From: Eubacteriales bacterium
GTDB taxonomy: Bacteria; Bacillota; Clostridia; Oscillospirales; SIG627
Assembly (NCBI GenBank): GCA_045594565.1
Contig: JAZNYT010000010.1
Location: forward strand, 321 to 64,320
Direction of reading: 5' to 3'
Length of the DNA: 64,000 nt
This document shows positions 2,823 to 25,500 of this stretch, piece by piece (position 1 is the first letter of the stretch; each line of letters begins with the position of its first letter). The notes beneath the pieces are model-generated. The model saw only the letters and a list, made by a program, of their open reading frames with translations. It had not been told where the DNA came from and searched no databases. Position numbers and translations under genes: made by a program.

Positions 2823-2827
2823 AGTGC

Positions 2828-4523: not shown

Positions 4524-4534
4524 ACACCTATGAG

Positions 4535-4645: not shown

Positions 4646-4702
4646 ATAGGAAGAGTGTGCTAAAACAAAAGACTCATACTTTAAGAGAGGGTGGCGACAT
4701 CT

Positions 4703-5074: not shown

Positions 5075-5086
5075 GTGTGAAGAAAA

Positions 5087-5629: not shown

Positions 5630-5648
5630 AAAATAAGGGGGCGGCGAT

Positions 5649-7885: not shown

Positions 7886-9435
7886 CAGTGCCTGAAAAGA
7901 CGTTAAGAAAATTAAATACATATATTCCCTCTCAATGGAAGGTTGCATTTTTTTCGGCTATCATTGTGGGACTTTTTGCACACCTTTATAAGATAACGAG
8001 CTGGATTCCCAACTGGGATTCTCTTGTTTTCAGATATGATTCACAGAATATGATAGGACTTGGCAGGTGGTTTTTGCCTGTAGCTTGCTCTGCCACCTCC
8101 TTTTACGATCTGCCATTTTTGAACGGAATTGTGTCAATCATATTTCACGCTCTCGGTGCAGTTTGCATTTGCAAGGTGCTGAGCGTTGAAAAAAAGATTA
8201 CCGCCTCGATTATAGGCGCTTTGACCATATCCTTTCCTACCGTTACCTCGGTGCTTATGTATAACTACGTGGCAGATGGCTACGGCATCGCGTTTTTCCT
8301 TTCTGCTCTTGCGGCAGTTCTTATGACGAACGAAAAGCCGAGATATTTTCTTTCGGTAATTCTTATCGCCTTATCGGCAGGTATTTATCAGGCGTATCTT
8401 ACGGTAACTATAATGCTCCTGCTCCTCCATCTTATCGATGAAATTATTTACCGAAATGCCTCTACGGCAGTAATCTTAAAAAAAGGACTTTTTATGGCGC
8501 TTACCGGAGTAGCCGGGCTTCTCATCTACAGTGCAATCCTCAAGGTACTTCTTGCCGTATTTTCCACAGAGCTTCTCGACTATCAGGGAATGAGTGAAAC
8601 GGCATCCTTTTCGAATATAAATATCCCCGCTTCCCTTTACATCGTAAAGGAAACGTTTATAAGACTGTTCTTTGATCCCCGTCACGACGTGAACGTGTAT
8701 CTCATCGCAAACATTTTTGTTTTCATCTTTACCGCTTTTTACTATCTGAAAACCATATTCAAAAGCGGCATTTATAAAAACGTGTCCAAGCTTGTTGTTG
8801 TCTTTCTGCTCACAGTTCTTCTTGTGATAGGCGCAGGAGCACTTGCTTTCATAAATGCAAGCATCGACTATCACAGTCTTATGCTTATGGGCTACTTCGT
8901 CTTCTATCTGTTCTTCGTCATTATTTACGAAAGAGGCAGTGAGGGCGACAAAGCCGCTTGCTTCAAGTGCTGGACGGTGCTTATAGTATCGGCTATTATA
9001 ATAGCAAATCAGGTGGTTATAGCAAACGTAAGCTATCACAAGGGACAAATGGCTTATGAGCGGTCATACGGTGTTTTGATTCGTATTGCCGACAGGATAG
9101 AGGAAACGGAGGGTGCAGAGGATTGCGACAGAATTCTTGTTGTAGGCGCCCTTGACAATAGCGAAAGCTATAGCGTTGACCTTCCTCCAAACGTTACGGG
9201 TGTCACCGACGGATATATAATACGCGCAGACGATGAAACGGTAGGACAAAGCGTAGTTACCGCAGCTCTTCGTGACTACTGTGAAAAGGACTTTGACTTT
9301 TTATACGGAGATGAGAAAAAGGAATTTCTTCAGAAGGACCAAGTGAAAGCCATGGAGAAGTGGCCGTCGGAAAACTCCGTTGCAGTGATAGACAAAACTA
9401 TTGTTGTTAAGCTTGGTGCAGAAGGTGAAAATTAA
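7870..9435 (+). CDS. polytopic membrane glucosyltransferase-like protein (GtrC / Glucos_trans_II-like, GT-C type)
   Basis: 521 aa; an alternative GTG start at 7888 follows GGAGTGG. Many TM segments, then a soluble C-terminal domain. N-terminal HLYKITSWIPNWDSLVFRYDSQNMIGLGRWFLP resembles the GtrII family. Confidence 0.6.
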   Translation: MVGVVTVPEKTLRKLNTYIPSQWKVAFFSAIIVGLFAHLYKITSWIPNWDSLVFRYDSQNMIGLGRWFLPVACSATSFYDLPFLNGIVSIIFHALGAVCICKVLSVEKKITASIIGALTISFPTVTSVLMYNYVADGYGIAFFLSALAAVLMTNEKPRYFLSVILIALSAGIYQAYLTVTIMLLLLHLIDEIIYRNASTAVILKKGLFMALTGVAGLLIYSAILKVLLAVFSTELLDYQGMSETASFSNINIPASLYIVKETFIRLFFDPRHDVNVYLIANIFVFIFTAFYYLKTIFKSGIYKNVSKLVVVFLLTVLLVIGAGALAFINASIDYHSLMLMGYFVFYLFFVIIYERGSEGDKAACFKCWTVLIVSAIIIANQVVIANVSYHKGQMAYERSYGVLIRIADRIEETEGAEDCDRILVVGALDNSESYSVDLPPNVTGVTDGYIIRADDETVGQSVVTAALRDYCEKDFDFLYGDEKKEFLQKDQVKAMEKWPSENSVAVIDKTIVVKLGAEGEN

Positions 9436-10302
9436 ATGATTTATTTTTGTGCCGACGATTACGGGCTGAACCCACTGACGTCGAAGCGTATAAAGGAATG
9501 CGCCGACATCGGTGCGCTTAACAAGATAAGCGTATTTCCGAATATTGCGCCCTTTGATTTAAAGGAAATTCTTTCGGATAACAAAATAAGAGTTTCTCTG
9601 CATCTCAATCTTGTTGAAGGGCGTTGCATGGCAAAGCCACAAGAAATAGATTTGCTTGCGGATGAAAAGGGAAATTTAAAGCACACCTTCGGCGGACTTT
9701 TTAAATTAAATTTGACAAAAAGAAAAAAGCTTGAAGAACAGCTTTACAACGAAATAAAAGCGCAGGTTGTGTACTGGAAGAGTCTTCTTCCCGAGGGTAC
9801 TGCTTTTTGCATCGACTCTCATCAGCACACGCATATGATTCCCGCGGTATTTAGTACACTTTTAAGAGTGTTGAGGGATGAAAAAATCGACTTGGAATAC
9901 GTAAGAATTCCCGCCGAGCCGCTGCTCCCTTTTATAAAAACGCCTTCCCTGTATTTCACCTACAGTGCGGTGAATATCATAAAGCAATGGCTTCTGAAGC
10001 TCTTATGGCTTATAAACAAGGCTCACACAAAAGGATATAAAATACCCACGGCTTACTTTTTCGGAATTCTTTTTTCGGGTAAAATGGACGAGAAAAGAGT
10101 TATGAGAATTCTGCCTCATTACGTAAAGCTTGCCGAAAAACAGGGCAAGGATATAGAGGTTTTGTTTCACCCCGGTTACTTTTCGGAAGGCGAAGAGCTT
10201 TCTGAAAACGAAAGTATAGTTTTCCAAAAGTTTTATTTATCCAAAAGCAGAAAAACAGAATTTGATTCTGTAATTAAAATCGCAGAAAGAGGTAAACTGT
10301 AA
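9436..10302 (+). CDS. ChbG/HpnK (YdjC-like) carbohydrate deacetylase
   Basis: 288 aa. MIYFCADDYGLN...SLHLNLVEG...DSHQHTHMIP are the metal-binding motifs of the YdjC family. Confidence 0.8.
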   Translation: MIYFCADDYGLNPLTSKRIKECADIGALNKISVFPNIAPFDLKEILSDNKIRVSLHLNLVEGRCMAKPQEIDLLADEKGNLKHTFGGLFKLNLTKRKKLEEQLYNEIKAQVVYWKSLLPEGTAFCIDSHQHTHMIPAVFSTLLRVLRDEKIDLEYVRIPAEPLLPFIKTPSLYFTYSAVNIIKQWLLKLLWLINKAHTKGYKIPTAYFFGILFSGKMDEKRVMRILPHYVKLAEKQGKDIEVLFHPGYFSEGEELSENESIVFQKFYLSKSRKTEFDSVIKIAERGKL

Positions 10303-10982
10303 TGCCTTACATTGAACAAGACAAGGTAGACGAAAAAACAAGAGAAAAGCTGGAGGCTATCATAGAGAAATCCTATCGAACCTTCTGGAAAAGCAAGAGA
10401 CTTTTCGATATCTTCTTTGCAACGCTCATTCTTCTCTTCTTCCTTCCTTTGATGATAATAATTGCCATCGTCATAGTAATCGACGACCCCAGCGCAGGTC
10501 CCTTCTATAAGCAGATAAGAGTGGGACGCCACGGAAAAGAATTTTATATGTACAAGTTCAGAACCATGCGTGCCAATGCAGACAAAATGATTGAAGAGCT
10601 TGCTAAGATGAACGAAATGGACGGTCCTGTATTCAAGATTAAGAACGACCCCAGAATCACAAGAGTCGGAAAGTTCTTAAGAAAGCTCTCACTCGACGAG
10701 CTTATGCAGTTCTTTAACGTTCTCAAGGGTGATATGACCCTTGTAGGTCCGAGACCTCCGCTTCCTCGCGAGGTACAGTACTATACGGATTATCAGAAGC
10801 TCAGACTTCTCGTTACTCCCGGACTCACCTGTACCTGGCAGATATCTAAAAACAGAAACGATATTCCCTTCGAGCAGTGGGTTGAAATGGATATCGAATA
10901 CATACAGACAAGAACCTACGCTAACGATTTGAAAATTATGCTCAAAACACCGATAGTTATGCTTACGGCTACCGGAAGATAA
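10302..10982 (+). CDS. polyprenyl-phosphate sugar-phosphate transferase (priming bacterial sugar transferase)
   Basis: 226 aa. One N-terminal membrane hairpin, then KFRTMRANAD...GPVFKIKNDPRITRVGKFLRKLSLDELMQFFNVLKGDMTLVGPRPPLP, the Bac_transf signature. Confidence 0.9.
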   Translation: MPYIEQDKVDEKTREKLEAIIEKSYRTFWKSKRLFDIFFATLILLFFLPLMIIIAIVIVIDDPSAGPFYKQIRVGRHGKEFYMYKFRTMRANADKMIEELAKMNEMDGPVFKIKNDPRITRVGKFLRKLSLDELMQFFNVLKGDMTLVGPRPPLPREVQYYTDYQKLRLLVTPGLTCTWQISKNRNDIPFEQWVEMDIEYIQTRTYANDLKIMLKTPIVMLTATGR

Positions 10983-10996
10983 AACGGAGTAAAAAA

Positions 10997-12121
10997 ATGA
11001 AAATTGCTATGATCGGGCACAAGGTCGTTCCCTCCAGACGCGGAGGAATCGAAAACGTGCTTACAACTCTCTGTCCTATTCTTGTAGAAATGGGACACGA
11101 GGTCACCTGCTATAACCGCTCATCCGACAAGGTTGAAAACGAGTACGTGGGAACTGTAGAAAACAAGACATTTAAGGGTGTAAAGCTCAAAAACGCTCCC
11201 ACTCTTGACGTTCGAGGCTTTGCTGCAATGATAGCCTCCTTTACAGCCGCCATATCGGCGTCCTTCTGTAAATACGACGTGATACATTTTCACGCCGAGG
11301 GTCCATGTGCGGCGCTTTGGATTCCCAAGCTTTTCGGAAAGAAGTGCGTTGCTACCGTTCACGGACTCGATTGGCAGAGAGAAAAATGGGGTAAAGGCTT
11401 TGCATCCAAGTATATAAAGTTCGGTGAAAAGGTTCTTGCAAAATACGCCGACGAGGTAATCGTTTTGAGCGATGCCGCGCAGGATTATTTTAAAAAGACG
11501 TATAACAGAGAAACCACCGTCATTCACAACGGTATCAGCCGTCCCGAGAAAAAATCTGCCGAAATCATCACCGAAAAGTACGGACTGAATAAGGACGAAT
11601 ACATATCTGTGGTATCCAGACTTACAGCAGAAAAAGGAATTCATTACCTCATCGATGCTTATCTTTTGCTAAACACCGACAAAAAGCTCGTTATCGCGGG
11701 AGATACCAGTGATACCGACGATTACGTAAGGATGCTGAAGGAAAAAGCAGAGGGAAATCCTAACATCATTTTCACGGGATTCATTTCGGGCGATACCTTA
11801 AGCGAGGTATATTCCAATTCATATATTAACGTTCTCCCCTCCGACCTTGAGGGTATGTCACTCTGCCTTTTGGAGTCACTTGCCTACTCAAATGCTCTCG
11901 TTTGCTCGGACATTCCCGAAAACACAGCGGTAGCCGAAAACCGAGCGCTTTACTTCAAAAAGGGAAACGTAGACGACCTCAGAGAGAAGCTTCAGTTTCT
12001 TTGCGATAACCGCGAAGCAGTTGAGAAATACCGCGATGGCGCAGATGAGTTTATTTTAAGCAAGTATAATTGGCGAGACGTTGCAAAATCCACAGTTGAG
12101 CTATACCAAAAACAGAAATAA
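10997..12121 (+). CDS. glycosyltransferase family 4 (GT-B)
   Basis: 374 aa. MKIAMIGHKVVPSRRGGIENV... and the C-terminal E-x7-E region EGMSLCLLESLAYSNALVCSDIPEN. Confidence 0.85.
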   Translation: MKIAMIGHKVVPSRRGGIENVLTTLCPILVEMGHEVTCYNRSSDKVENEYVGTVENKTFKGVKLKNAPTLDVRGFAAMIASFTAAISASFCKYDVIHFHAEGPCAALWIPKLFGKKCVATVHGLDWQREKWGKGFASKYIKFGEKVLAKYADEVIVLSDAAQDYFKKTYNRETTVIHNGISRPEKKSAEIITEKYGLNKDEYISVVSRLTAEKGIHYLIDAYLLLNTDKKLVIAGDTSDTDDYVRMLKEKAEGNPNIIFTGFISGDTLSEVYSNSYINVLPSDLEGMSLCLLESLAYSNALVCSDIPENTAVAENRALYFKKGNVDDLREKLQFLCDNREAVEKYRDGADEFILSKYNWRDVAKSTVELYQKQK

Positions 12122-12133
12122 GGGTTTATTGAT

Positions 12134-13378
12134 ATGGATGAAAGAATAAACATTGATGATATGGAGCAGTATCAGGAAAAGATAAAAGAGCTTTTCGCAG
12201 AGCTTTCGTCGGAAGAGCTTGCTCGCACGTGGGCTGACACCTTTGACATAGACGAGATTGACGAAAAACGGATTACCGTTATTTATCACGGCACCGAAAG
12301 CGTCAAGCTTTTTAAGAAGAAATGCCGAGGGGCTTTGGAAATCTCGGTACACTCTCTTTTCGGCTCGGTGAAAAAAATAAAAATAGTAAAAAAGAAAAAA
12401 AGTAATACCTCTCACAAGGCTCTGGCACCCAAAACGAAAAAGAACATCAAGGCTTTGAATTTTTTCGTTATCGGTATTATCTTTCTTGGTATTGCGGCAT
12501 CGGTCATTGTCGTTTTGTGTAATTATATCGTCAACAGAAATTTCAGAGAGACGTTTTACATTACAAGCAGTATAAAGGTTGACAGTCCCATCAGAGTTAT
12601 TCAGATATCGGATCTGCACAGTACCTCTTACGGCAAGAACAACGAAGCACTTCTTGAACGAATCAGCAGGCTGAAGCCTGATATCATTATCTGTACAGGC
12701 GACATTGTGAATTCGGCGACAGAAGACCTTGACTATGCGACGTCCTTATGCAAAAGTCTTGCAGAGATCGCCCCCTCTTATTACGTATACGGAAACAACG
12801 AGGTGGAAAGCATTTACGGCTTCCCTCTCGTAAAGAATACCTTAGATAAGAAATTCGGATTTGACGACAACAACCGCGACGAATCGGCACTTTGGGATAT
12901 CGAAGACACCTTTGAGGAAAAGCTTGAGAGCGTCGGAATCAAGGTTTTGAAGAATGAAAAGGATACCGTAAGGATAAAAAATACGAACGTTGACGTATAC
13001 GGAGTTTTAAGCTCAAATCCTTCGGCGTTCTGGCCTTATTCGGGAAATGCTTTCCTCGATTATATGTACGAGGACACCGACAACGTTAAGATAACAGCGG
13101 TGCACGAGCCTTTCATTTTTGAAGAACTCGGTGCTGAATATTGGGGCGACCTGATGATAGCGGGGCATACACACGGCGGTATAATGAGAATACCCGTGCT
13201 TGGCCCTCTCTACACAAACGAAGGCGGTCTCTTCCCCGAAAGAAGCGGTGCTTTCGTTTACGGAAGATACAACGTGTCGGGCGCTACCCTTATAGTTAAC
13301 GCGGGTCTTGATAATTCAAGTATCCTTCGCATAAACAATCAGCCCGAGCTGGTTGTTATCGACGTCAATAGATTTTAG
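12134..13378 (+). CDS. membrane-anchored metallophosphoesterase with an N-terminal cytoplasmic domain
   Basis: 414 aa with one TM segment (FFVIGIIFLGIAASVIVVLCNYI). Calcineurin-like motifs IQISDLHS, CTGDIVN, GNNE, VHEP, GHTHGG. The first roughly 90 aa form a separate small domain. Confidence 0.75.
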   Translation: MDERINIDDMEQYQEKIKELFAELSSEELARTWADTFDIDEIDEKRITVIYHGTESVKLFKKKCRGALEISVHSLFGSVKKIKIVKKKKSNTSHKALAPKTKKNIKALNFFVIGIIFLGIAASVIVVLCNYIVNRNFRETFYITSSIKVDSPIRVIQISDLHSTSYGKNNEALLERISRLKPDIIICTGDIVNSATEDLDYATSLCKSLAEIAPSYYVYGNNEVESIYGFPLVKNTLDKKFGFDDNNRDESALWDIEDTFEEKLESVGIKVLKNEKDTVRIKNTNVDVYGVLSSNPSAFWPYSGNAFLDYMYEDTDNVKITAVHEPFIFEELGAEYWGDLMIAGHTHGGIMRIPVLGPLYTNEGGLFPERSGAFVYGRYNVSGATLIVNAGLDNSSILRINNQPELVVIDVNRF

Positions 13379-13385
13379 GAGGTGA

Positions 13386-14747
13386 ATGGATTTGTTTACA
13401 GGACTAATTCTGAAGCTGATACTTCTCGTTATCGGTTTGATATTTGTAGCATCTGTTGCATTAATTTTATTACGCTCAAAAAACGTAAACCGTACAGAGC
13501 GTACACAGATTTTCAAAACTGCCGAGTATTTCAACGCGGGAATAATTATGCTCTGCCTTATCATAGCCATTGTGTACGGACTTCTCAATCACTTTGAAAT
13601 GAAAAAATCCGTTCACGCCATAGTCGCACTCAATTATTCCGAAGCCTCCAATGCACTTAATTCCAACGGTACAAGATACAATATGTCGGAAATTATAAGC
13701 GACGAGGTAGTTGAAAGAGCCATCGAGAAGGGCGCACTTGAAAACGTCACCGTAAGTCAGCTTAAAAGCTGTCTCGTGGTTTACCCTTGTGTGCAGGGCG
13801 GTGTAGATGATGAAGCTCAATATCACATATCCACCGAATTTGCGGTAGAATACCACGCTTCAAAGGAAACCGCGCACCTGGATTCCGAAAACGTAATAAA
13901 ACTCATAACCTCGGCTTACAAGGAATACTATATCGAAAAATATACCGATAATTTCAGTCTTGATGCCGAAAAGCCCGACTTTGATAAGATGGAATATATG
14001 GACATCGTAGCTTATCTCGATAAGGAAACACAAGCTGTTCTCAATTATTTGTACGGTATGGCGGCAAAGAACAACAGCTTCGTTACCGAAAACGGAAGCA
14101 CATTTAATTCCATTGCGGGCAAGGTTTATCAGTTCAAGGAAACCCAGATAAATCAAAATCTGCGCGCACTCATTCTTCAAAACGGTGTTGTAAGAGATAA
14201 AAACGGCTACGTTGACCGACTCTCTTACCACAACAAGAACGTAGACTTTGACAGGCAGAAGAACGAGGCTTCATACAGACTTTGCAATGAAGCGATTGCT
14301 ATGTACAGTGAAGAAATGACCCGAATCGTTCTGGTACCCACCTGGGACCAATCGGGAAAATATTATATGGGTCGAACAAAGGTAGGTATCGACGAGCTTT
14401 CTGTTAAGGCTACCGAGTTCAGCGACTACGTTGCATCAAACGAAAAAGAGATTATGGACAACAAGCTGATAATCGACAAAATATCGGCAGCTGACTACGG
14501 CGCTAAATTTTACGTATCGGCAGATTCACTTGTAAATGCAATCTATGATAATCTAAAGGCTTTTGAAAAAGAAGCGGTAACGGCAGGAAGAGAGTATTCA
14601 AGACACAAAATGAATCAGTGTATCGCGGTAACCATTTACGGTATATCCATTATGGACGAGCTTCGGACACTGATACTCTTTGCGGCATTTGCATATCTGT
14701 CATTTGTGCTTTACAGAATTTCTAAAAAATTCCCCAAAAAATCTTAA
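13386..14747 (+). CDS. bitopic membrane protein with PCP/Wzz-like topology (function unknown)
   Basis: 453 aa with AGGAGG RBS. N-terminal TM segments, a large hydrophilic middle, and a C-terminal TM (LILFAAFAYLSFVLYRI). No kinase domain. Confidence 0.5.
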   Translation: MDLFTGLILKLILLVIGLIFVASVALILLRSKNVNRTERTQIFKTAEYFNAGIIMLCLIIAIVYGLLNHFEMKKSVHAIVALNYSEASNALNSNGTRYNMSEIISDEVVERAIEKGALENVTVSQLKSCLVVYPCVQGGVDDEAQYHISTEFAVEYHASKETAHLDSENVIKLITSAYKEYYIEKYTDNFSLDAEKPDFDKMEYMDIVAYLDKETQAVLNYLYGMAAKNNSFVTENGSTFNSIAGKVYQFKETQINQNLRALILQNGVVRDKNGYVDRLSYHNKNVDFDRQKNEASYRLCNEAIAMYSEEMTRIVLVPTWDQSGKYYMGRTKVGIDELSVKATEFSDYVASNEKEIMDNKLIIDKISAADYGAKFYVSADSLVNAIYDNLKAFEKEAVTAGREYSRHKMNQCIAVTIYGISIMDELRTLILFAAFAYLSFVLYRISKKFPKKS

Positions 14748-14768
14748 GCCGTCTGAGTGAGGATTAGA

Positions 14769-16628
14769 ATGAAAAATTTCCAGATTTTAAGATATATAAA
14801 AAAGCTTCTGCCGATTATTATAGTTTTTTGTCTTCTTATGACGTACGCTATTTATTTTAAGCTGTCGTCCTCAAACACCTATATTGCGTCAGAGGTTATA
14901 CACTACAACGATGAACAGGCTGAAAAGGGACTTGCTCCTACAGGTGACAAGCTGGACGTAAATGAAATAAAGTCCTCTGCGGTTATGTCGAAGGTCGTTG
15001 ACAGAATGGGTCTTACGGGAATCTATTCGGTTGACAATCTTATATCTAGAATCAACATAACGCCCATCGAGGACGCGGACAAGGTAGCACAGAAGGATGC
15101 AAAGCTGGAAGAAGGCGAAGAGTACGTATATAAGCCCAGTACCTTTATCGTTTCCTTCTCTTCAACCAGTGGAGAAGGTCCTGAATTTGCAAGAACGATA
15201 CTTGACGAAACCCTTGACGTCTATTTTGAACAGTTCAGTCAGAAATACGTAAACGTAGCTCCCGCCAATAACACCATAGAAAAGCTCAACAAAAACGATT
15301 ATGATTTTATTGAGATGATGGAGCTTATTGACACAAGTATTGATAATACACTGAACACGCTTTATCAGCGAATCGGTCAGAATAATTTCTATAGGTCAAG
15401 CGAAACGGGAGTGTCCTTTTCGGAGCTTGCCGACGACTTCAATTATCTGAGAGAGGTCAAGGTCTCCTCCCTCCTATCGAGAATTTACAAGTATCAGATA
15501 ACCAAGGACAAGACGGTGCTTGTTTCCGACTATACCACAAGAATAGATAACAACAATATTTCCAATGCAAAGGACGAAAGCATTGTAGAGGATATTGTTA
15601 CCGTAATTGATGCATACGTTACGAAAATGAGAGAGTCGGGAAATACGAACATTTCCTATGAATACATTCTCGACAACGTGCATGAAAGAAACGTTCAGGA
15701 TTATTTCGGAGATCAGACAGTAACCTACGACGAGCTTATATATAGCTGGCGAAACAACAACGAAAGCAAGGAACACTCCATTATTGACTCGGCATACTGC
15801 AAGTATATCCTTGACACCTTCACAAGCTGTACGGGAAAATGCAACGACAAATGCCAAGATTCTCCTCTTACCTGCGCAGAGCTTTGCGATAAGGAATATG
15901 CAAGGGTACGGGAAGAGGTGGAAAGCGAGATAGATACCCTTCTTGCAGAGCTGAACACCCTATATGAAACCACAACAAAAACAAATACTGAGTACAACAA
16001 ATATCTTGGTGCAAGCTACATTTCAGTTTTGTCTTCAGCTTCTATCAGAGAAAGTGTTAACGTTATTCTCTATACTGCAATTGCCTTCTTCTTCCTTGTA
16101 GTTGTTTGTATCGGCGGTGCAATAGTTCTCGGAAGAACCGGAGATATAATAAACTATATTTTCTATACAGACCACTTCACAGAATTCGGCAACAGAGCAT
16201 ATCTTGATAAATATTTCAAGGCGAAGGACAAAAAGCTCCTGGACGACGGTGTTGTGTACTGTCTTGTGGATATAGCAAATCTTGCGCACATCAACTCTGA
16301 ATATTCAAGAGAGGTGGGCGACGATATAATCAAGATGTTCGCAAACTATATAAAGGAAACCTTCGGTAAATCAAAGACAGAGTTCATATACAACGGTAAC
16401 GGCAGCTTCGTAATGCTTACGGAAAATGCAGATTATATCACAGTTGAAGATATAATGAGACTTTTCAGACTCAGACTGGACGAAAGAGATGAGCTGAGAA
16501 ACGTAGTTATCGAGTATAAGATAGGTATAGCAGAAACCTTCAAGGAAAATAAGACTGCAAGAAGACTGTTCTCCGAAGCTATAGAAAATAAAAAGAGCTA
16601 CGTTTCGGATTTAAGAATCAGTAACTAA
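14769..16628 (+). CDS. Wzz/PCP-type polysaccharide co-polymerase fused to a degenerate C-terminal GGDEF domain
   Basis: ORF track 14757-16628; ATG 14769 follows GAGTGAGGA. TM1 LLPIIIVFCLLMTYAIYF, a large outer domain, TM2 VILYTAIAFFFLVVVCIGGAIVLG. Then TDHFTEFGNRAYL...VYCLVDIANLAHINSEYSREVGDDIIKMF...IYNGNGSFVML, with NGNGSF where GG[DE]EF should be. Confidence 0.65.
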   Translation: MKNFQILRYIKKLLPIIIVFCLLMTYAIYFKLSSSNTYIASEVIHYNDEQAEKGLAPTGDKLDVNEIKSSAVMSKVVDRMGLTGIYSVDNLISRINITPIEDADKVAQKDAKLEEGEEYVYKPSTFIVSFSSTSGEGPEFARTILDETLDVYFEQFSQKYVNVAPANNTIEKLNKNDYDFIEMMELIDTSIDNTLNTLYQRIGQNNFYRSSETGVSFSELADDFNYLREVKVSSLLSRIYKYQITKDKTVLVSDYTTRIDNNNISNAKDESIVEDIVTVIDAYVTKMRESGNTNISYEYILDNVHERNVQDYFGDQTVTYDELIYSWRNNNESKEHSIIDSAYCKYILDTFTSCTGKCNDKCQDSPLTCAELCDKEYARVREEVESEIDTLLAELNTLYETTTKTNTEYNKYLGASYISVLSSASIRESVNVILYTAIAFFFLVVVCIGGAIVLGRTGDIINYIFYTDHFTEFGNRAYLDKYFKAKDKKLLDDGVVYCLVDIANLAHINSEYSREVGDDIIKMFANYIKETFGKSKTEFIYNGNGSFVMLTENADYITVEDIMRLFRLRLDERDELRNVVIEYKIGIAETFKENKTARRLFSEAIENKKSYVSDLRISN

Positions 16629-16648
16629 AAATAAAGGAGGGCAAGGGC

Positions 16649-17950
16649 GTGGAGAATAAACTGCTTGAAAAAGCAAAGGTATGTTATTTTGTGGCAGTTG
16701 CCGTAATGATGTATTATTTTCTCAACGAATATATCGATCTCGGTATCCACGTAACCTTCCGCCACGCTTTTGCCCTCGTTCTTTTCGGCTCAGCATTGCT
16801 TATGTTTATGTACAAGCCGAATATAGCAAGAGGCGTTACCTCTTTTACAGATGCCTGCATCTACAGCACCCCCCTTGCCGTTACAACGGTAGTATCCCTC
16901 TTTATATGGTTTGTGGGACTTGCCCCTACCGGCGTTATATCCAGAGGACTTTCAAGCTCATTTATATATGCTAATATGCTATCCTTTGCCCTTGGCGCAG
17001 GTGCCTTACTTTACGTTTTCGGGAACAAGGGCGTATGGTACAATCTGCTTGCAATACTTATTGCAAATATTTTAATGATACTTACCATCATTGCCGAATA
17101 CGGTCTCGGAAGCTATATGTCGGAATTTATAACACTTATAATCACCTTCGCAGGTGTTACAGGCGATATTATCATTCAAGCGGAAATACACGAGCTTGCT
17201 TTCTGTCTCGGAGCGTATCTTATTTATATGCTATTCAAGCCCCGAAAGAGTATAATTTACTTTATATTACTCATTTTAACTCTTTTCTGCTTCTTGTCGG
17301 CACTTAAAAGAATTGCAATTATCGCCATTGTCATCGCCCTGATCTTCGGTTACATTTTGAAGTTCATTGCGAAATACAATAAAAAAACCGCAAGCGGACT
17401 GGTTATATTTTTGACGGTAGCAATAATCCTTATACTTTTAGGATACGTTGCGCTCATAAAGATGGGCGCCTTCGAGCTTCTTGAAAAAGCAGGAATAGAA
17501 ACCAGCGGACGTGTTGAGATATATCAGGCGGTAGATAAATTTTACGACTTTGATCCGGGATTTTTAGGTAACGGAATAGGCTATTTGACATATCAGCTCA
17601 ATACCTTTATGAAAGTCGGAGTTGCATCTGTTCACAACGACTTCCTTCAGCATTTCATCGACCTTGGCTTCTGGGGCTATATTATATGGCTCACCTCCAT
17701 GACGCTTGTGAGAGTTTTATATTTCGGAAGAAAGGGTAACGTGGAAAATGCAATCATTGCTTTTATGCTTACCGTTTATCTGATAATAGTTTCATCAACC
17801 GACAACACAATGAACTATCCCCTTCTGACAGGTGTTCTTGCGATGCTGATGATGGGAAACTGCTATGACGAAAACGTGAGAAATACAGAATTTAAAATAT
17901 TTAAAAGAGTTTCTAAAGAAAACAAAACAGAAAGCGATTCTTTGCTATGA
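16649..17950 (+). CDS. O-antigen ligase/polymerase family membrane protein (Wzy-like)
   Basis: 433 aa, GTG start after AGGAGG, about 10-12 TM segments. The loop with SVHNDFLQHFIDLGFWGYIIW is typical of the Wzy_C domain. Confidence 0.75.
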   Translation: MENKLLEKAKVCYFVAVAVMMYYFLNEYIDLGIHVTFRHAFALVLFGSALLMFMYKPNIARGVTSFTDACIYSTPLAVTTVVSLFIWFVGLAPTGVISRGLSSSFIYANMLSFALGAGALLYVFGNKGVWYNLLAILIANILMILTIIAEYGLGSYMSEFITLIITFAGVTGDIIIQAEIHELAFCLGAYLIYMLFKPRKSIIYFILLILTLFCFLSALKRIAIIAIVIALIFGYILKFIAKYNKKTASGLVIFLTVAIILILLGYVALIKMGAFELLEKAGIETSGRVEIYQAVDKFYDFDPGFLGNGIGYLTYQLNTFMKVGVASVHNDFLQHFIDLGFWGYIIWLTSMTLVRVLYFGRKGNVENAIIAFMLTVYLIIVSSTDNTMNYPLLTGVLAMLMMGNCYDENVRNTEFKIFKRVSKENKTESDSLL

Positions 17951-19155
17951 AAATTTTGATGGTAAACAAATTTCTCTATCCTCGCGGAGGAAGCGAAAGC
18001 TATATGCTTTATCTCGGAGAGTACTTCGAAAAGCTTGGACACGAGGTTGAGTATTTCGGAATGTACGATGAAAAGAATACCGTTGGTAATTCGGCAGGGC
18101 TTTATACTCAGAATATGGACTTTCACTCAACGGGGCTTGCCAGATTCTTATATCCTTTCAAGATAATCTACTCTTTTGAGGCAAAAAAGAAGATTATGAA
18201 GGTAATCGACACCTTCAAGCCCGATATAGTTCATATGAACAATATAAACTTTCAGCTTACCCCTTCTATTATAGACGGGATAAAGAAGAAAGGCGTACCT
18301 CTTGTTCAGACGGTGCACGACTATCAGATGATTTGCCCCAACCACCTTTTCTATAATTTCGATAAAAACACCCCTTGTGAAAAGTGTGTTCACGGTTCCG
18401 TGTTTAACTGTGTTAAAAATAAATGCATTCACGGCTCAACGGTTAAAAGCCTTTTAGGTGTTGTTGAAGCAAAGTTCTATTCGCTCCTCAAGACCTACAA
18501 AAAGGTAGACCTATTCGTTTGCCCAAGCAACTTTCTTGAGAACAAGCTTTTGAATGCGAGAAGCTTTTACAAAGGCAAAACAATAACCATACATAACTTC
18601 ATAAACAAAGAAAAGTTCACAAATACCGACAGGAAGGCAGACTCGTATATAGTATACGTGGGAAGACTTTCCAAGGAAAAGGGAATCGAAAATATTGCAG
18701 GGGCGGCAAAGCTCCTCCCCGACTACAACTTCGTTATTGCAGGTAACGGTCCCGACGAGGATATGCTCAAGGATATTCCCAACGTAAAGCTTGCGGGATT
18801 CGTTACAGGCGAAAAGCTCACAAAGCTTGTAGGAGATGCAAAGCTGCTTCTTCTCCCCTCGGTATGCTACGAAAACTGCCCACTATCCATTCTTGAGGCG
18901 CACTGTATGGGTGTCCCCGTTGTCACTATGAATAGCGGAGGAATGGCAGAGCTTGTTCGTGACGGGGTCACAGGTACTCTTGTAAACGATCCTACCCCCG
19001 AGGGCGTTGCCGCTAAATTAAAGGAAACTATTGAAAACGAAGAGTACTACAAGACTATTGAGGAAAACTGCAAAAACGAGAAGGACAACATTCTAAGCGT
19101 TAAGACCTACTCGGATATTCTGATTGGAGAATATGAAAAACTGATTTCGAGGTGA
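17947..19155 (+). CDS. glycosyltransferase family 4 (GT-B)
   Basis: 402 aa. MKILMVNKFLYPRGGSESY... and ENCPLSILEAHCMGVPVVTMNSGGMAELV. ATGA overlap with the Wzy stop. Confidence 0.85.
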   Translation: MKILMVNKFLYPRGGSESYMLYLGEYFEKLGHEVEYFGMYDEKNTVGNSAGLYTQNMDFHSTGLARFLYPFKIIYSFEAKKKIMKVIDTFKPDIVHMNNINFQLTPSIIDGIKKKGVPLVQTVHDYQMICPNHLFYNFDKNTPCEKCVHGSVFNCVKNKCIHGSTVKSLLGVVEAKFYSLLKTYKKVDLFVCPSNFLENKLLNARSFYKGKTITIHNFINKEKFTNTDRKADSYIVYVGRLSKEKGIENIAGAAKLLPDYNFVIAGNGPDEDMLKDIPNVKLAGFVTGEKLTKLVGDAKLLLLPSVCYENCPLSILEAHCMGVPVVTMNSGGMAELVRDGVTGTLVNDPTPEGVAAKLKETIENEEYYKTIEENCKNEKDNILSVKTYSDILIGEYEKLISR

Positions 19156-19160
19156 GATAA

Positions 19161-20219
19161 TTGTCCGTACCAAAGATTAGTATTATCATTCCTGTATATA
19201 ACGTAGAAAAATATATCGAAAGATGTGTCGGTTCACTCATCTCTCAAACGCTTGATGAGCTTGAAATAATACTTGTGGACGACTCCTCAACAGATTCCTC
19301 CCTTGAAATATGCAAGAGGCTTGCGGAGTCCGACTCTCGCATAAGGGTTATTCATAAAGAAAATGAGGGTGCAGGAAAGGCAAGAAATGCGGCGCTTGAA
19401 ATAGCGCGCGGTGAATATATCGGCTTTGTCGACTCTGATGATTTCGTAGAGCCCGATATGTTCAAGACCCTTTACGAAAAAGCCGAAAAATACGGCTCTG
19501 ACCTTGTGATGTCGGGTGTTTTGTTTGTAAACGGAAATATGTTCAGTAAAAAAGGCGAGCGTGTTTCAAAATCATACTTCGAAAAGGATACTCATTTCGA
19601 GAGTGACGAAGAGCTGAAGGGACTCAGGATGGGCATCATAGGTGCCAAGCCCGAGGATGCAGACGACAGTAAATACGGAATGAGCATCTGGAAGAATCTT
19701 TTCAGAGCAGAGATTATAAAGGAAAACAATATTACCTTTGAATCCGAGCGTGAGATACTTTCGGAGGATGCTCTCTTTATGATAGACTATATTTCTCATA
19801 TCAAGAAAGCAACAGGCATAAAAGAAGCTTTTTATAACTATTACAGAAACGAAGCTTCAATTTCGAAGTCATATAAAAAAGACCGATTTGAAAAGAGTCT
19901 TATTTTCGTATCACAAGTGGAAAAGAGATTCCTTAAGGACATTCCGAAAAGTGAATATCGGATATATATCTACAGATTCTGGCAGGCGATGTGCAGAGTA
20001 CTCTGCTCTCAAGAAATAATGTATGCGGCTGCCAACAACATAAGATACAGTAAGCTGAAGGAAAGACTGAAGGCGATTTGCACAAATCCTTTGACGACAG
20101 AGGCGCTTAAATCCTATCCTCTGTCAACCCTTCCTCTGAAGCAAAGAATATTTGCCTACGGAGTAAAATGGAAGCTTTACCGTGTCTTAAAAATACTTGT
20201 AGGATTAAGGAGTAGATAG
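19161..20219 (+). CDS. glycosyltransferase family 2
   Basis: 352 aa, TTG start. ISIIIPVYNVEKYIERCVGSLISQT...VDDSSTD...FVDSDD. Confidence 0.85.
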   Translation: MSVPKISIIIPVYNVEKYIERCVGSLISQTLDELEIILVDDSSTDSSLEICKRLAESDSRIRVIHKENEGAGKARNAALEIARGEYIGFVDSDDFVEPDMFKTLYEKAEKYGSDLVMSGVLFVNGNMFSKKGERVSKSYFEKDTHFESDEELKGLRMGIIGAKPEDADDSKYGMSIWKNLFRAEIIKENNITFESEREILSEDALFMIDYISHIKKATGIKEAFYNYYRNEASISKSYKKDRFEKSLIFVSQVEKRFLKDIPKSEYRIYIYRFWQAMCRVLCSQEIMYAAANNIRYSKLKERLKAICTNPLTTEALKSYPLSTLPLKQRIFAYGVKWKLYRVLKILVGLRSR

Positions 20220-20227
20220 GCGATAAT

Positions 20228-21244
20228 ATGTTTTTTTCAGTAATCGTTCCCGTATACAAGGTTGAAAAATACCTGCCGATTTGTATAGAAAGTGTGTTAC
20301 AACAGACCTTCTCGGATTTTGAGCTGATTCTTGTAAATGACGGCTCACCCGATAACTGTCCTGCTATTTGCGACAGCTACAAGGAAAAGGATAGCCGTAT
20401 CAAGGTAGTTCACAAGGCTAACGGCGGACTTGCCAGTGCCAGAAGAGCAGGAATCAAGGTTGCCGAGGGAGAGTACGTATATAACCTGGACTCCGATGAC
20501 CTTATCGAAAAAGATACTCTTGAATGTGCGCACAAAATCATAACCGAAACGGGTGCACAAATCGTATCCTTTGCATACAGATGGGTTAAGGGTGGAAAAA
20601 CCGTTAATGTCACGAACGACGGACTTGACGAGGGCTTTTATGATAAGAACGCTATCGAAAAGTATATTTACCCAAGACTGTTGATGGACAAGAATATGAA
20701 TCACGTGTCCTTCTACCTGTCGGGCAAGGCGATTAAACGAGAGTTTATCCTCCCCCATCAGCTGAACGTCAGCGAAAAGATTTCCCTTGGTGAAGACCTG
20801 TGTTGTGTTGTTCCCTGTTATCTTAACGCAGAAAGCGTGTACATAAGCAAAAAAGAAGCATATTTATACACCGTAAGAGAAGACTCTCTGTCAAAGGAAT
20901 TCAACACAAAACAGATATTCCTCATCGAAAACGTTATAAACGAAATTGCGAAGAACGATTTTAGCAAAATTTCGAACTTTGACGAACAGGTTTGCCGTTA
21001 TTCGTTCTTCATGTGCTTTGCTATACTTGCATCTGCTGCGGAAGGTAATTATTTTTCGTGTATAAAGGAATTGAAAAACAACATCAAAAGCTCAATACAC
21101 ATAAAAAAAATACCACTTGCAAAATTTGAAAGCATCTCACCGAAAACAAAAATCGGTCTCTTCCTTATGAAAAGGAGCTATTACAGAACAGCCTTTTATT
21201 TTCTTAATCTTTGTAAAAATATCAAACGCGTATTTGGGAGGTAA
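20228..21244 (+). CDS. glycosyltransferase family 2
   Basis: 338 aa. FSVIVPVYKVEKYLPICIESVLQQT...VNDGSPD...NLDSDD. Confidence 0.85.
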   Translation: MFFSVIVPVYKVEKYLPICIESVLQQTFSDFELILVNDGSPDNCPAICDSYKEKDSRIKVVHKANGGLASARRAGIKVAEGEYVYNLDSDDLIEKDTLECAHKIITETGAQIVSFAYRWVKGGKTVNVTNDGLDEGFYDKNAIEKYIYPRLLMDKNMNHVSFYLSGKAIKREFILPHQLNVSEKISLGEDLCCVVPCYLNAESVYISKKEAYLYTVREDSLSKEFNTKQIFLIENVINEIAKNDFSKISNFDEQVCRYSFFMCFAILASAAEGNYFSCIKELKNNIKSSIHIKKIPLAKFESISPKTKIGLFLMKRSYYRTAFYFLNLCKNIKRVFGR

Positions 21245-21250
21245 ATTGTT

Positions 21251-22315
21251 ATGATGCCTGATATATCGATAATTATGAGTGTATATAACGGCGAAGCTTA
21301 TATTAAGGAAGCGGTAGAAAGCGTTATAAACCAAACGTTCAAAAACTGGGAGCTTATAATTATAAACGACTGCTCAACAGACTCAACAGGGGAAATTCTT
21401 GCAGAGCTTGAAAAAGCTGACAACCGTGTTAAGGTGTACCCGAACGAGGTAAACAGAAGGCTTCCCGCCTCTCTTAACAGAGCGGTTTCACTTTGCTGGG
21501 GCAAGTACATCGCCAGAATGGATGCCGACGATATATGTCTTCCCGACAGACTTGAAAAGCAATTTAAATTTATGGAAGAAAACCCCGACGTGGATATGTC
21601 CTCCTGTAGATTTATGACAGTCAAAAACGGAGTATATATGTCGGGCGGTGCAGGCGGAAGAACAGACTGTGGTGCCATAAAAGCTATGCTCCTTGTGGCA
21701 AATCCCATTCTTCACCCCGGTATCATTGCGAAAGCGGAGGTAATGAAGGAATTCCGCTATGACACAAAGCTTACCTGCACAGAAGACCTTGAGCTTTGGA
21801 CAAGAATGATTATGGGTGGAAAAAACATCCGCATTCTCCCCGAGTGCCTTATGATTTATCGTCTTCATGATAAGCAGATTACAAGCACAACTCTTGAAAG
21901 ACAGCGCAAGGAAGTGCTTGGCATTGAAGAAAAATACTACTCTTCCCTTCTTGAAGAAATGGAGGAGGATATTAAAGAGTTTTACATAAGCGGAATTTAT
22001 TTTAGAGAAACTGCCGACATTGATAAATTTATAAAATTTGCAAAATGGCTAAAAAAGGTAAGCGCAGACAAATTCGAGAAAGAGATAATAGACTATTCTC
22101 TTTTTGAGATTCTGGCTGAATACAAAAGACGCGGCATATCAAAGAAGGACCTTTTAAAGGGTATGCTTTCCTTTGACCTTTCATTCTTGATGAAGGAGAT
22201 ATCAAGAAGAAAGAAAGTGGCAAGGGAAGACATCGAAAAATGTGTTCGTGTTGCCAAGTCTATGGGACTTAAACAGACATCGGGAACGAAGGAGTATCCT
22301 ATTTTTGAAAAATAG
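21251..22315 (+). CDS. glycosyltransferase family 2
   Basis: 354 aa. ISIIMSVYNGEAYIKEAVESVINQT...INDCSTD...RMDADD. Confidence 0.85.
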   Translation: MMPDISIIMSVYNGEAYIKEAVESVINQTFKNWELIIINDCSTDSTGEILAELEKADNRVKVYPNEVNRRLPASLNRAVSLCWGKYIARMDADDICLPDRLEKQFKFMEENPDVDMSSCRFMTVKNGVYMSGGAGGRTDCGAIKAMLLVANPILHPGIIAKAEVMKEFRYDTKLTCTEDLELWTRMIMGGKNIRILPECLMIYRLHDKQITSTTLERQRKEVLGIEEKYYSSLLEEMEEDIKEFYISGIYFRETADIDKFIKFAKWLKKVSADKFEKEIIDYSLFEILAEYKRRGISKKDLLKGMLSFDLSFLMKEISRRKKVAREDIEKCVRVAKSMGLKQTSGTKEYPIFEK

Positions 22316-22331
22316 TAAACAGGTGAAATAA

Positions 22332-23690
22332 ATGCGAATTTTTGAATATCCTTACGTAATTATAACTATTCTTGCAATGATTTTTATTCTGATGGGACTG
22401 GTTGCCCTTTATTTTACAATAAAGTCGATGAGAACGGCAAAAGGTACTGCGGAAAAAGGCTTTTGCGGAATAGGTAAAATAGAAAGCGATTTTGAAAAAG
22501 CAGGGTCACTCAGAAAAAAGAGAACTCTTCTTTATATCTCGCTCTCCCTTGACTCTGTGAAAAGAGTGTATTCGGAATCCAAAGCCTTAAGAATATACGA
22601 ATATGTAAAAAAGGTGCTCTTTAATCATTTGTGTCTTGCCATTGACGGAGAGATATCTCATTACGGCAAAGAGAATTTTGTATCACTTAATATGTTGCCT
22701 GCCGAAGATATGCCTGCCATTATGGATGCCTGCTTTGAAGAAATTAACGAGGTTATTTCAAACCACGGCGCAATAAATGTAATACGTATAAACTTCGGCT
22801 ATCATACAACAAGCTCCACGGAGGTTTCATTTAAAACCGCTCTCAGCCGAGCGAAGCAGGCGTGCAGTATTGCCGAGGACAAAGAAGAATTGTACTGTCT
22901 TTGGGATAACGTAAACGGAAAAGAATTTGAAAGAAAAATTGAAATAGAAAACAGCATACAGAACGATATTGACAACAATAAATTCTTTCTGGAGTATCAA
23001 CCCATTCTTGAAGCAAAAACTCAAAAGATTATGGGAGCGGAGGTTCTTGCGAGACTTAATTCATCAAAGGAAGGTGTTCTAACCCCCAAACATTTTCTTT
23101 CTGCGGTAAACAACGTAGGACTTAATGAAAAATTCGATTATTATATTTTCGAAAAAAATTGCAAATGGATTTCCTGTGACAAAGAAAAACGAACACAAAA
23201 AATATATACTATAAATTTTTCGCGCTTCACTCTTTGTGACCAAGCTCTTGCCGACAACATAATAAATATTGTAGAAAAATACGGTATAGACTTTTCGTGT
23301 ATTGCAATAGAAATTTTGGAAGACAAGAACCTTAATAAAGATGAAAAAGCACATATGGTAAATAATCTCAAAGTACTGAAGGAAAAAGGTATTTTGATAC
23401 TTCTTGACGATTTCGGTAAAGGCTACACAAGCTTTGGAGACTTATCTGATTTCGATATAGATATTGTAAAGATTGATAAGGACATTACTCAAAAAGCAAT
23501 CAATCATACAGGATTTTTAATTCTCAAAAACATTATAAAAACTGCTCACGATCTGGGCTTTAAGACTCTTTGTGAGGGAATTGAAACAGAAGAGCACAGA
23601 AAAATAGTAACGGAAGCAGGATGTGACTTCCTTCAAGGATATTACTTTTACCGACCAATTCCCGTTACTCAATTTGAAACTTTAATTTAA
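22332..23690 (+). CDS. membrane-anchored degenerate-GGDEF / EAL-domain c-di-GMP phosphodiesterase
   Basis: 452 aa with an N-terminal TM segment. The GGDEF-like region has HYGKENF in place of GG[DE]EF. The EAL domain has YQPIL, GAEVLAR, INFS, IEILED, LDDFGKGYTS, VKIDKD, CEGIETEE and LQGYYF. Confidence 0.8.
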   Translation: MRIFEYPYVIITILAMIFILMGLVALYFTIKSMRTAKGTAEKGFCGIGKIESDFEKAGSLRKKRTLLYISLSLDSVKRVYSESKALRIYEYVKKVLFNHLCLAIDGEISHYGKENFVSLNMLPAEDMPAIMDACFEEINEVISNHGAINVIRINFGYHTTSSTEVSFKTALSRAKQACSIAEDKEELYCLWDNVNGKEFERKIEIENSIQNDIDNNKFFLEYQPILEAKTQKIMGAEVLARLNSSKEGVLTPKHFLSAVNNVGLNEKFDYYIFEKNCKWISCDKEKRTQKIYTINFSRFTLCDQALADNIINIVEKYGIDFSCIAIEILEDKNLNKDEKAHMVNNLKVLKEKGILILLDDFGKGYTSFGDLSDFDIDIVKIDKDITQKAINHTGFLILKNIIKTAHDLGFKTLCEGIETEEHRKIVTEAGCDFLQGYYFYRPIPVTQFETLI

Positions 23691-23703
23691 CAAGGTGATT
23701 TTT

Positions 23704-24630: not shown

Positions 24631-24663
24631 TTTTATCAACAAGCCAAAAAGGAGTTTTTTGCT

Positions 24664-25465: not shown

Positions 25466-25500
25466 GTGTAGCGCGACTGAATTCGCGCTACACATTTTTT
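25466..25500. terminator. bidirectional intrinsic terminator between the polysaccharide operon and rplQ
   Basis: GTGTAGCGCG-loop-CGCGCTACAC flanked by AAAAAAA upstream and TTTTTT downstream. Confidence 0.75.

Follow-up and report, generated by a model that had tools for sequence, protein, structure and literature searches.

A co-polymerase-like protein with a degenerate GGDEF tail, a candidate nucleotide sensor, in a Wzy-type glycopolymer operon of gut Clostridia

As far as we are aware, the only post-translational control known for the assembly of Wzy-dependent polysaccharides is that by cycles of bacterial tyrosine kinases (BY-kinases) and phosphatases, and direct control by c-di-GMP (cyclic diguanosine monophosphate) is known only for synthase-dependent systems, i.e. 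those of cellulose, alginate, Pel, poly-N-acetylglucosamine and Listeria Pss. In the Wzy-dependent pathways the kinase goes together with the polysaccharide co-polymerase (PCP): it forms the tail of Wzc (PCP-2a), known from the group 1 capsules of E. coli and Klebsiella, and is a separate protein in the PCP-2b systems of Firmicutes (CpsC/CpsD, YwqC/YwqD, EpsA/EpsB), the usual Gram-positive solution for Wzy pathways. PelD of Pseudomonas and YdaK of Bacillus, as well as PssE of Listeria, bind c-di-GMP via the inhibitory site (I-site) of a degenerate GGDEF domain, and all three serve synthase-dependent pathways. We report here on a gene at 14769..16628 (+ strand) of a 64,000-nucleotide stretch from a Eubacteriales bacterium (contig JAZNYT010000010.1, assembly GCA_045594565.1; this whole stretch is called the window below), which encodes a PCP-like protein of 619 amino acids (aa) with a degenerate GGDEF tail. 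In our estimation the chances are about even that this protein is a nucleotide-sensing co-polymerase of the PCP type in a Wzy-dependent surface glycopolymer pathway of an uncultured gut Clostridium. A co-polymerase carrying a domain of the c-di-GMP type would join the fields of Wzy pathways and c-di-GMP signalling and might represent a third regulatory route.

The open reading frame (ORF) is read from the ATG at 14769, which is preferred to an alternative in-frame GTG start at 14757 because a GAGGA ribosome-binding site lies 8 nt 5' of it and M1 is invariant across 69 aligned relatives. Hydropathy analysis revealed exactly two hydrophobic segments in the protein (about aa 13-30 and 432-454). 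Together with the K/R-rich N-terminus and an arginine (R456) behind the second segment, they indicate a cytoplasmic N-terminus, an outer domain of about 400 aa and a cytoplasmic C-terminus. Both AlphaFold2 (AF2) models, one of the full-length protein and one of aa 1-465, agree with this topology of two transmembrane (TM) segments starting inside. The full-length model, built on 69 diverse relatives, has a mean predicted local distance difference test score (pLDDT) of 88.3. The topology put forward in an earlier reading made from the DNA letters (hereafter the sequence-only reading) was thus borne out by hydropathy, charge distribution and the models.

From its N-terminus, the protein consists of TM1 (14805..14858, AF2 helix 6-34), which follows the K/R-rich cytoplasmic segment MKNFQILRYIKK, the extracytoplasmic domain (aa 31-431, 14859..16061), TM2 (aa 432-454, 16062..16130), a helical stalk (16131..16166) and the cytoplasmic GGDEF-fold domain (Pfam aa 466-604, 16164..16580), all on the + strand like every other feature given below unless stated otherwise. 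The inner end of TM2 is Gly-rich (CIGGAIVLG) and leads over to R456. These positions are well conserved in a diverse set of 69 representatives with 22-48% identity to the query (G447 in 63/69, G455 and R456 in 65/69 each). According to the DSSP assignment of both AF2 models, the stalk is the cytoplasmic continuation of TM2, forming with it one continuous helix (aa 432-466) that runs straight into the GGDEF-like domain.

Several observations point to a co-polymerase nature of the outer domain. The AF2 model of aa 1-465 alone has a pLDDT of 92.6 and a predicted TM-score of 0.82. It leads from TM1 through an alpha/beta base (strands 37-46, 95-100, 125-133 and 418-428) and a series of long helices (138-161, 180-204, 217-242, 248-289, 319-352 and 377-417, the longest comprising 42 residues) to two short strands directly before TM2. 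The model thereby displays the PCP fold, i.e. a membrane-proximal alpha/beta base closed by a strand before TM2 and a long helical hairpin. In a Foldseek search of the PDB, the 12 best matches of this model were co-polymerases only (E 3e-6 to 3e-3, probability 0.99-1.0), namely ten Wzc chains from cryo-electron microscopy, including 9r68, 9exo and 7nhr, and two chains of full-length WzzE (8p3p and 8p3o, ranks 9 and 11); KpsE came next. The Pfam family Wzz (PF02706) was found at E<=0.01 in 30 of 116 relatives, comprising 16 of 47 tail-less and 14 of 69 GGDEF-bearing proteins, with a best E of 1e-6. Four of these matches whose scores were inspected reach 21.2-24.6 bits, which is under the gathering score of 25.5, and cover TM1 and the first strand. 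Furthermore, the protein is encoded together with a Wzy polymerase (Wzy_C, the next gene) and an initiating transferase (Bac_transf, four genes upstream), and the same applies to distant loci. On this modelled and contextual basis we regard the outer part as PCP-like by fold, topology and gene context, but not as a demonstrable member of Pfam Wzz by sequence.

Compared with the described co-polymerases, the protein comes closest to Wzc, its best structural match. In both, two TM segments enclose a large outer domain, which combines long helices with an alpha/beta base, and TM2 is followed by a cytoplasmic domain of a nucleotide-binding type. Wzc works with Wzy, as the present protein probably does. 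However, a P-loop BY-kinase with a Tyr-rich end forms the tail of Wzc, whereas the tail found here is a dead GGDEF fold; in addition, there is no Wza partner in this Gram-positive-type organism and no detectable sequence similarity between the two proteins. With the PCP-1 proteins Wzz, WzzE and FepE it shares the topology, the fold class, the location by Wzy and, in relatives, the weak PF02706 matches. In contrast to PCP-1, it has a cytoplasmic domain and a larger outer domain of about 400 aa, and it lacks their Pro-rich motif. The PCP-2b proteins occupy the same place in the pathway, but their outer domain is small and they need a separate tyrosine kinase and phosphatase.

The sequence-only reading had noted the GGDEF domain at a place where a BY-kinase would be expected, and no such kinase was found. 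The protein itself has no Pfam match to P-loop, CbiA or AAA_31 domains. The scan for a BY-kinase gene covered every ORF in the operon and close to its ends as well as ten of the larger ORFs from other parts of the window, and it was negative throughout. LCP ligases and intact cyclases were not detected among these ORFs either.

In view of the profile match and the model comparison, the GGDEF fold of the C-terminal domain is not in doubt. Pfam GGDEF (PF00990) matches aa 466-604 with 42.4 bits (E 8.1e-11, gathering score 23.8), and NCBIfam TIGR00254 gives 33.3 bits, which is under its cut-off of 37.4. A PDB sequence search with the protein returned only diguanylate cyclases, DgcR and PleD among them. 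The C-terminal 146-150 residues or so were superimposed by Foldseek on isolated GGDEF domains with a target-normalised TM-score of 0.70-0.74 and a root mean square deviation of 2.6-3.1 A. In the alignment with DgcR, D468..N475-R476 corresponds to DxLTGLxNR, and D501-I-A...N509...G517-D518 corresponds to DIDxFKxINDxxGHxxGD, with D501 as the first Asp. The correspondences drawn by eye in the sequence-only reading were in this way verified residue by residue, and the fold proposed there is supported by both the profile match and the structural comparison.

The same alignment revealed why this domain is catalytically degenerate. The signature [RF]-GG[DE]EF is replaced by Y541-N-G-N-G-S-F547 (16389..16409), which contains one extra residue, and the position of the inhibitory RxxD motif, which canonically stands five residues upstream of the signature, reads GKSK (G533-K536, 16365..16376). 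Neither feature is peculiar to this protein: GG[DE]EF occurs in none of the 69 diverse members, nor does RxxD at the I-site, half of whose four positions are deleted in the majority of them. Since both acidic residues of GG[DE]EF are lost, the domain cannot make c-di-GMP, and since RxxD is missing, it cannot bind c-di-GMP at the classical inhibitory site either. Both points agree with the earlier statements that cyclase activity is very unlikely and that the I-site reads GKSK. In the databases, relatives go under the names "diguanylate cyclase" and "GGDEF domain-containing protein". The former name is misleading in view of the lost signature and the TIGR00254 score.

Despite these losses, the domain looks repurposed rather than decaying, because the guanine-binding Asn and Asp and a shared motif are kept. 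All 69 diverse members have Y-N-G-x-G-Q-[FY] in common. In a larger alignment of 226 relatives, there is no exception at N475, R476, D480, N509, Y541, N542 and R598 and a single one at R514 (Arg in 225), while D468, G517, D518, G543 and F547 are near-invariant. We take N509 and D518 (the latter kept in 209/226, the rest being Asn) to be the guanine-binding Asn/Asp of the IND...GD motif, a role known from the structures of PleD and other diguanylate cyclases. Together with R598 and K/R599 (the latter in 170/226), which are basic residues of the phosphate site, they represent the kept part of the substrate site. In close orthologs the GGDEF domain is conserved to about the same degree as the outer domain, with identities of 0.81 vs 0.84 and 0.70 vs 0.71. 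Our reading of these patterns is that of an old, neofunctionalised GGDEF subfamily, which would have lost catalysis and I-site and retained the guanine- and phosphate-contacting residues of the substrate site.

A precedent for such a use is known from Caulobacter, where the dead GGDEF domain of the GGDEF-EAL phosphodiesterase PdeA senses GTP at its substrate site. PdeA resembles our case in that a dead GGDEF domain keeps the substrate site and works with an EAL domain, and the residues concerned point to a PdeA-type site in this family (N509 and R598 in 226/226 each). The differences are that both domains of PdeA belong to one soluble protein, whereas the EAL proteins found here are separate and confined to one clade, and that the GGDEF signature is far more diverged. 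The second precedent, to which the sequence-only reading had appealed, is that of degenerate GGDEF receptors acting on exopolysaccharide machines. It is well founded for PssE of Listeria, which is a degenerate GGDEF receptor for c-di-GMP, binds it via an RxxD I-site and is required for exopolysaccharide synthesis (PMC4125290). PssE, PelD and YdaK have in common with our protein that they are membrane proteins with a dead GGDEF domain whose genes belong to polysaccharide operons. Unlike them, the family described here lacks the I-site, belongs to a Wzy-dependent pathway and has the domain fused to the co-polymerase itself. By analogy, the nearest functional counterpart of the tail might be the cytoplasmic kinase ring of Wzc, and the nearest signalling logic that of PssE, PelD or YdaK.

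The fusion is not an isolated case. The family comprises more than 1000 clusters at 90% identity, and the named ones all derive from metagenome-assembled genomes of Clostridia; a cultured carrier is Lacrimispora sp. 210928-DFI.3.58 (47% identity). As far as the named sources show, the family is confined to gut and rumen Clostridia. We compared the gene context in close loci, i.e. the best 80 of 96 loci encoding relatives in species-representative genomes, and in nine distant loci with 27-47% identity to the query. The 80 close loci derive without exception from assemblies of gut or rumen Clostridia and show synteny of the whole operon. In eight of the nine distant loci, Wzy adjoins the PCP pair described below or is at most two genes away, and the neighbourhood of PCP gene and Wzy persists in relatives with as little as 27-36% identity. 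A full-text literature search, whose coverage was incomplete and which is thus not proof of absence, yielded no paper on a fusion of a co-polymerase with a GGDEF domain. The statement of the sequence-only reading that it knew of no described fusion of this kind therefore stands, but it has to be added that the fusion is widespread and not rare. As far as we can tell, the new elements are the combination of PCP and GGDEF, the Y-N-G-x-G-Q-F site without I-site and the conserved set of partners, while the parts are of known kinds.

The tail of these proteins varies. With aa 1-465 alone as query, HMMER retrieved 662 clusters at 50% identity. Among the best 150 of these there were 115 full-length proteins, about 71 (~62%) of them with a GGDEF tail and two with an EAL tail, the rest being tail-less. 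In the two EAL-tailed proteins (P0249 and P0258) the EAL domain stands at the exact position of the GGDEF domain; one of these domains has a degenerate DDFG motif (DNFG), the other is intact. The context of P0249 (Wzy, paralog, PCP-EAL, metallophosphoesterase) is that of the GGDEF-bearing members. Two truly tail-less PCP cases were confirmed, both in the same gene context. A further candidate, an apparently split gene at locus L089 (an ORF for a 458-aa PCP and one for a 149-aa GGDEF protein), was rejected as independent evidence. It is one PCP-GGDEF frame interrupted by a single in-frame TAA at 9375-9377 of that locus, exactly in the stalk (…DIFDY*LHTDHKLGIPNR…), and could reflect a sequencing error, a pseudogene or read-through. 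Hence some of the "tail-less" database entries may be artefacts as well. Just upstream of the PCP module, L089 also contains genes for a PAS-GGDEF-EAL and a PAS-GGDEF protein (1-4164), which in that lineage might produce and remove c-di-GMP locally.

Two partners accompany the gene, which are additions beyond the sequence-only reading: a paralog that is always present at the distant loci and a metallophosphoesterase that usually is. Directly upstream (13386..14747) lies the gene for a PCP-like protein of 453 aa, which was recognised by BLASTP and hydropathy and consists of a TM segment, an outer domain of about 350 aa and a second TM segment, with no cytoplasmic domain. It shows 21% identity to the N-terminal part of the 619-aa protein (BLASTP, E 3e-7) and has no Pfam match. 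Orthologs of it are encoded directly upstream of the PCP gene in 9/9 distant (E 1e-11 to 1e-106) and 77/80 close loci, and in P0221 the two proteins are fused in tandem. This suggests that the PCP and its paralog may form a hetero-oligomeric co-polymerase.

The gene in front of the paralog (12134..13378) encodes a membrane-anchored metallophosphoesterase (Pfam Metallophos), which occurs in 73/80 close and 7/9 distant loci. Its single TM segment (aa 103-135) follows a K-rich N-terminal region of about 100 aa, and as a single N-terminal signal-anchor it predicts an outward orientation of the catalytic domain. The enzyme is weakly similar to YaeI and to the pyrophosphatase LpxG. Because the operon contains no LCP ligase, it might process the polymer linked to undecaprenyl-pyrophosphate. 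In one relative (P0200), the PCP-GGDEF part is followed by an extra TM segment and the metallophosphoesterase in one fusion protein. At the level of protein sequence, the fusions in P0200 and P0221 confirm the partnerships of PCP-GGDEF with the metallophosphoesterase and of the paralog with the PCP.

The operon of the window furthermore encodes two EAL proteins, a TM-anchored one (22332..23690, Pfam EAL, E 4e-57) and a stand-alone one (24664..25443, E 2e-58). Measured against the catalytic motifs known from the enzymology of EAL proteins, both are complete: EVLAR, NFS, EILED, DDFGKG, KID, EGIE and QGY in the former, EALSR, NFT, EITED, DDLGSG, KID, EGVE and QGW in the latter. Judged by these motifs, both are apparently active phosphodiesterases. 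The gene of the TM-anchored protein is present in 64 of the 67 close loci that reach far enough, and that of the stand-alone protein in at least 26 of 59. A value of 64/80 close loci for the second gene was discarded, as cross-matches to the TM-anchored protein had inflated the count. Between its TM segment and the EAL domain, the TM-anchored protein has about 170 aa that show no Pfam GGDEF match and only 0.6 bits with a hidden Markov model of the GGDEF-like family. Its aa 71-450 align with positions 272-652 of a PdeR-like composite model of NCBIfam, aa 71-200 falling into the GGDEF part of the model, and the linker is possibly a further GGDEF remnant.

These EAL proteins are relevant for an alternative in which the tail is a ligand-free scaffold, i.e. 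a surface for dimerisation or docking that recruits the operon EAL proteins in the manner of a split GGDEF-EAL protein, or else cytoplasmic glycosyltransferases. GGDEF and EAL domains commonly pair, the gene of the TM-anchored EAL protein is kept in nearly all close loci, the GGDEF part of the PdeR-like model extends over aa 71-200 of that protein, and in two relatives EAL replaces GGDEF altogether. Nevertheless, we consider this alternative unlikely. At all nine distant loci the same module occurs without an EAL gene in the stretches examined, so that operon-encoded EAL proteins are specific to the window's own clade, and conservation within the tail is highest in the nucleotide pocket (N509, D518, R598 and N475-R476), whose residues a pure scaffold would not need. 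The docking platform for the EAL proteins proposed by the sequence-only reading is consequently weakened as a general function of the tail, while the link to EAL proteins in the window's clade persists.

Returning to the nucleotide-sensing co-polymerase, and taking the observed architecture and fold, the degeneracy and conservation of the tail, the gene context and the domain swaps as starting point, we infer the following course of events. The outer domain probably works with Wzy and the paralog, likely in a hetero-oligomeric ring. The GGDEF-fold tail, which would take the place of the BY-kinase ring of Wzc, may act as a sensor of guanine nucleotides at the former substrate and active site. 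Its ligand would most likely be c-di-GMP, with GTP as second candidate; c-di-GMP is placed first because of the EAL swaps in relatives and the EAL proteins of the operon. Occupancy or the dimerisation state of the tail could be relayed via the stalk and TM2 to the outer domain. A continuous signalling helix is also the geometry by which GGDEF domains are controlled in cyclases. Through this relay the co-polymerase pair would shift its conformation or oligomeric state and thereby switch or tune the output of Wzy, whether at the level of polymerisation, of chain length or of release. The two apparently active EAL phosphodiesterases encoded in the operon would lower c-di-GMP locally in the window's clade.

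A number of findings weigh against this interpretation. The query-normalised TM-scores of the Foldseek matches to PCPs are low (0.24-0.29), which means that the similarity is local and topological and not a global superposition. Pfam Wzz gives no match to the 619-aa query even at E<=10; of the two domain assignments made by the sequence-only reading, GGDEF was thus recovered by profile in the query, whereas the assignment to Wzz stands by topology, fold, relatives and context and is marginal as far as direct sequence membership is concerned. An hhalign comparison of a profile of 102 family sequences with WzzE and WzzB of E. coli (sequences from NC_000913.3) was not significant (probability 0.4% and 2%, respectively), so that homology to PCP-1 cannot be claimed at the sequence level. 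When the family profile was run against the PDB sequences, no PCP came up; the matches were confined to coiled-coil noise (PI3K regulatory subunit). Known PCPs carry a Pro-rich motif before TM2 and a Gly-rich TM2 (PX2PX4SPKX11GGMXGAG). The Pro-rich part is absent here, with not a single Pro in aa 410-432, and the Gly-rich end alone is present (G447, G450 and G455 in the family).

Further points of this kind concern the tail and its ligand. D501, the first metal-binding Asp, is kept in 154/226 relatives, i.e. in the window's clade, and is R, Q, N or K in distant members, which argues against canonical Mg-GTP binding. All degenerate GGDEF receptors of exopolysaccharide systems known to us use the I-site, which is missing here. 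The EAL genes, one of the reasons for putting c-di-GMP first, are absent from the examined stretches of the distant loci, and the window contains neither a c-di-GMP riboswitch (Rfam scan) nor a protein with an intact GG[DE]EF (motif scan). Finally, the occurrence of tail-less PCPs in the same context means that the tail is accessory and not essential to the machine.

Some of these negative results would also fit an ordinary membrane signalling protein, in which the outer domain is a ligand sensor instead of a co-polymerase and which lies as a degenerate regulator by chance in a polysaccharide operon. Two TM segments enclosing a periplasmic domain, followed by GGDEF, are the commonest layout of membrane-bound cyclases; the query has no Wzz match, the hhalign comparison with WzzE and WzzB fails, and helical sensor domains of chemoreceptors are among the weak Foldseek matches (E 0.06-0.2). 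The E-values of the best structural matches, all of them PCPs, are however 3-4 orders of magnitude better than those of the sensor domains, and the Wzz matches in about a quarter of the relatives (30/116) are likewise at odds with a sensor. Moreover, such a protein would hardly explain the tail-less homologs, which have no output domain, are always paired and lie next to Wzy, nor a position beside Wzy that is still kept at 27-36% identity. We therefore judge this explanation quite improbable. Residual non-canonical catalysis, i.e. the synthesis of another cyclic or linear dinucleotide or the hydrolysis of nucleoside triphosphates as reported for some degenerate GGDEF domains, appears very improbable, since both acidic residues of the signature are lost in 69/69 members, most distant members have also lost the first metal-binding Asp and no second conserved acidic set is evident besides D468 and D480, even though guanine- and phosphate-binding residues are kept, D501 is retained in the window's clade and Y-N-G-x-G-Q-F is as strictly conserved as would be expected of an active-site loop.

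Taken further, the nucleotide-sensing interpretation leads to a bolder and more tentative proposal, which we regard as rather doubtful but worth stating. Two PCP-like proteins, a dead GGDEF or EAL tail and an outward-facing metallophosphoesterase could constitute an unrecognised module for the control of Wzy-dependent cell-wall glycopolymers in Clostridia, in which binding of a guanine nucleotide (c-di-GMP) to a GGDEF-like ring replaces the tyrosine phosphorylation cycle of the BY-kinases. If true, a second messenger would here for the first time be seen to control a Wzy-dependent pathway directly and post-translationally. It would also imply a new mode of ligand binding by GGDEF domains at the Y-N-G-x-G-Q-F site, for which the family is a good candidate because of its own invariant motif and the missing I-site. 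The cultured Lacrimispora sp. makes the idea testable.

The gene belongs to a co-directional glycopolymer operon of 19 genes (4691..25443), which was delimited by gene content, minimal gaps and flanking signals. It is preceded by a hairpin resembling a terminator (4532-4564) and by a site resembling a promoter (4617-4645), and a bidirectional terminator (25466-25493) follows it. The first genes encode GtrA, an acetyltransferase, a probable flippase, a DXD glycosyltransferase, GtrII, YdjC, the initiating transferase and a glycosyltransferase of family 4 (GT4). They are followed by the metallophosphoesterase, the 453-aa protein, the 619-aa protein, Wzy_C, another GT4 and three glycosyltransferases of family 2 (GT2), and at the end by the TM-anchored EAL protein, a GtrB-like GT2 and the stand-alone EAL protein. 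Besides Wzy and the initiating transferase, the operon thus encodes eight further glycosyltransferases; a ninth one, of the GtrII type, is counted with the side-branch set described below.

The Wzy-type polymerase (16649..17950) is a multi-pass protein of 433 aa (Pfam Wzy_C, E 7e-10), and the initiating phosphoglycosyl transferase lies at 10302..10982 (Bac_transf, E 1e-65). For the flippase, a candidate of the Wzx type was found at 5649..7154 (501 aa), as suggested by at least eight hydrophobic segments; it has no Pfam or NCBIfam match. Synteny of the operon extends over at least 70 species-level genomes; for the initiating transferase, identity amounts to 85-94% in the closer members of the clade and drops to 65% in the most distant. 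The operon is surrounded by housekeeping genes, namely rpoA, the S10 operon, the gene of a class A penicillin-binding protein, dnaE, murB and hprK. This neighbourhood and the synteny make it probable that the polymer is a core envelope component of these abundant uncultured gut bacteria and not a variable capsule.

Some minor features remain to be mentioned. At its tip, the outer domain has a segment rich in Cys (aa 344-373, 15798..15887), which stands out by its conservation in relatives. It contains C344, C354, C358, C362, C369 and C373 (C-x9-C-x3-C-x3-C-x6-C-x3-C), the first five of which are kept in 191-201 of the 226 relatives, and AF2 confidence is lower over it in both models. These residues could form disulfides or a metal site; in Wzz proteins, apical loops influence chain length. 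The operon also contains genes for a GtrA-like (4691-5074), a GtrII-like (7870-9435) and a GtrB-like protein (23695-24630, a GT2 with two C-terminal TM segments), which by their sequences make up a complete set for the addition of a sugar side branch outside the membrane. Downstream of the operon, the - strand carries an S10-Clostridia ribosomal leader (41215-41288, 42.5 bits) and a Gut-1 RNA (44295-44367, 56.9 bits).

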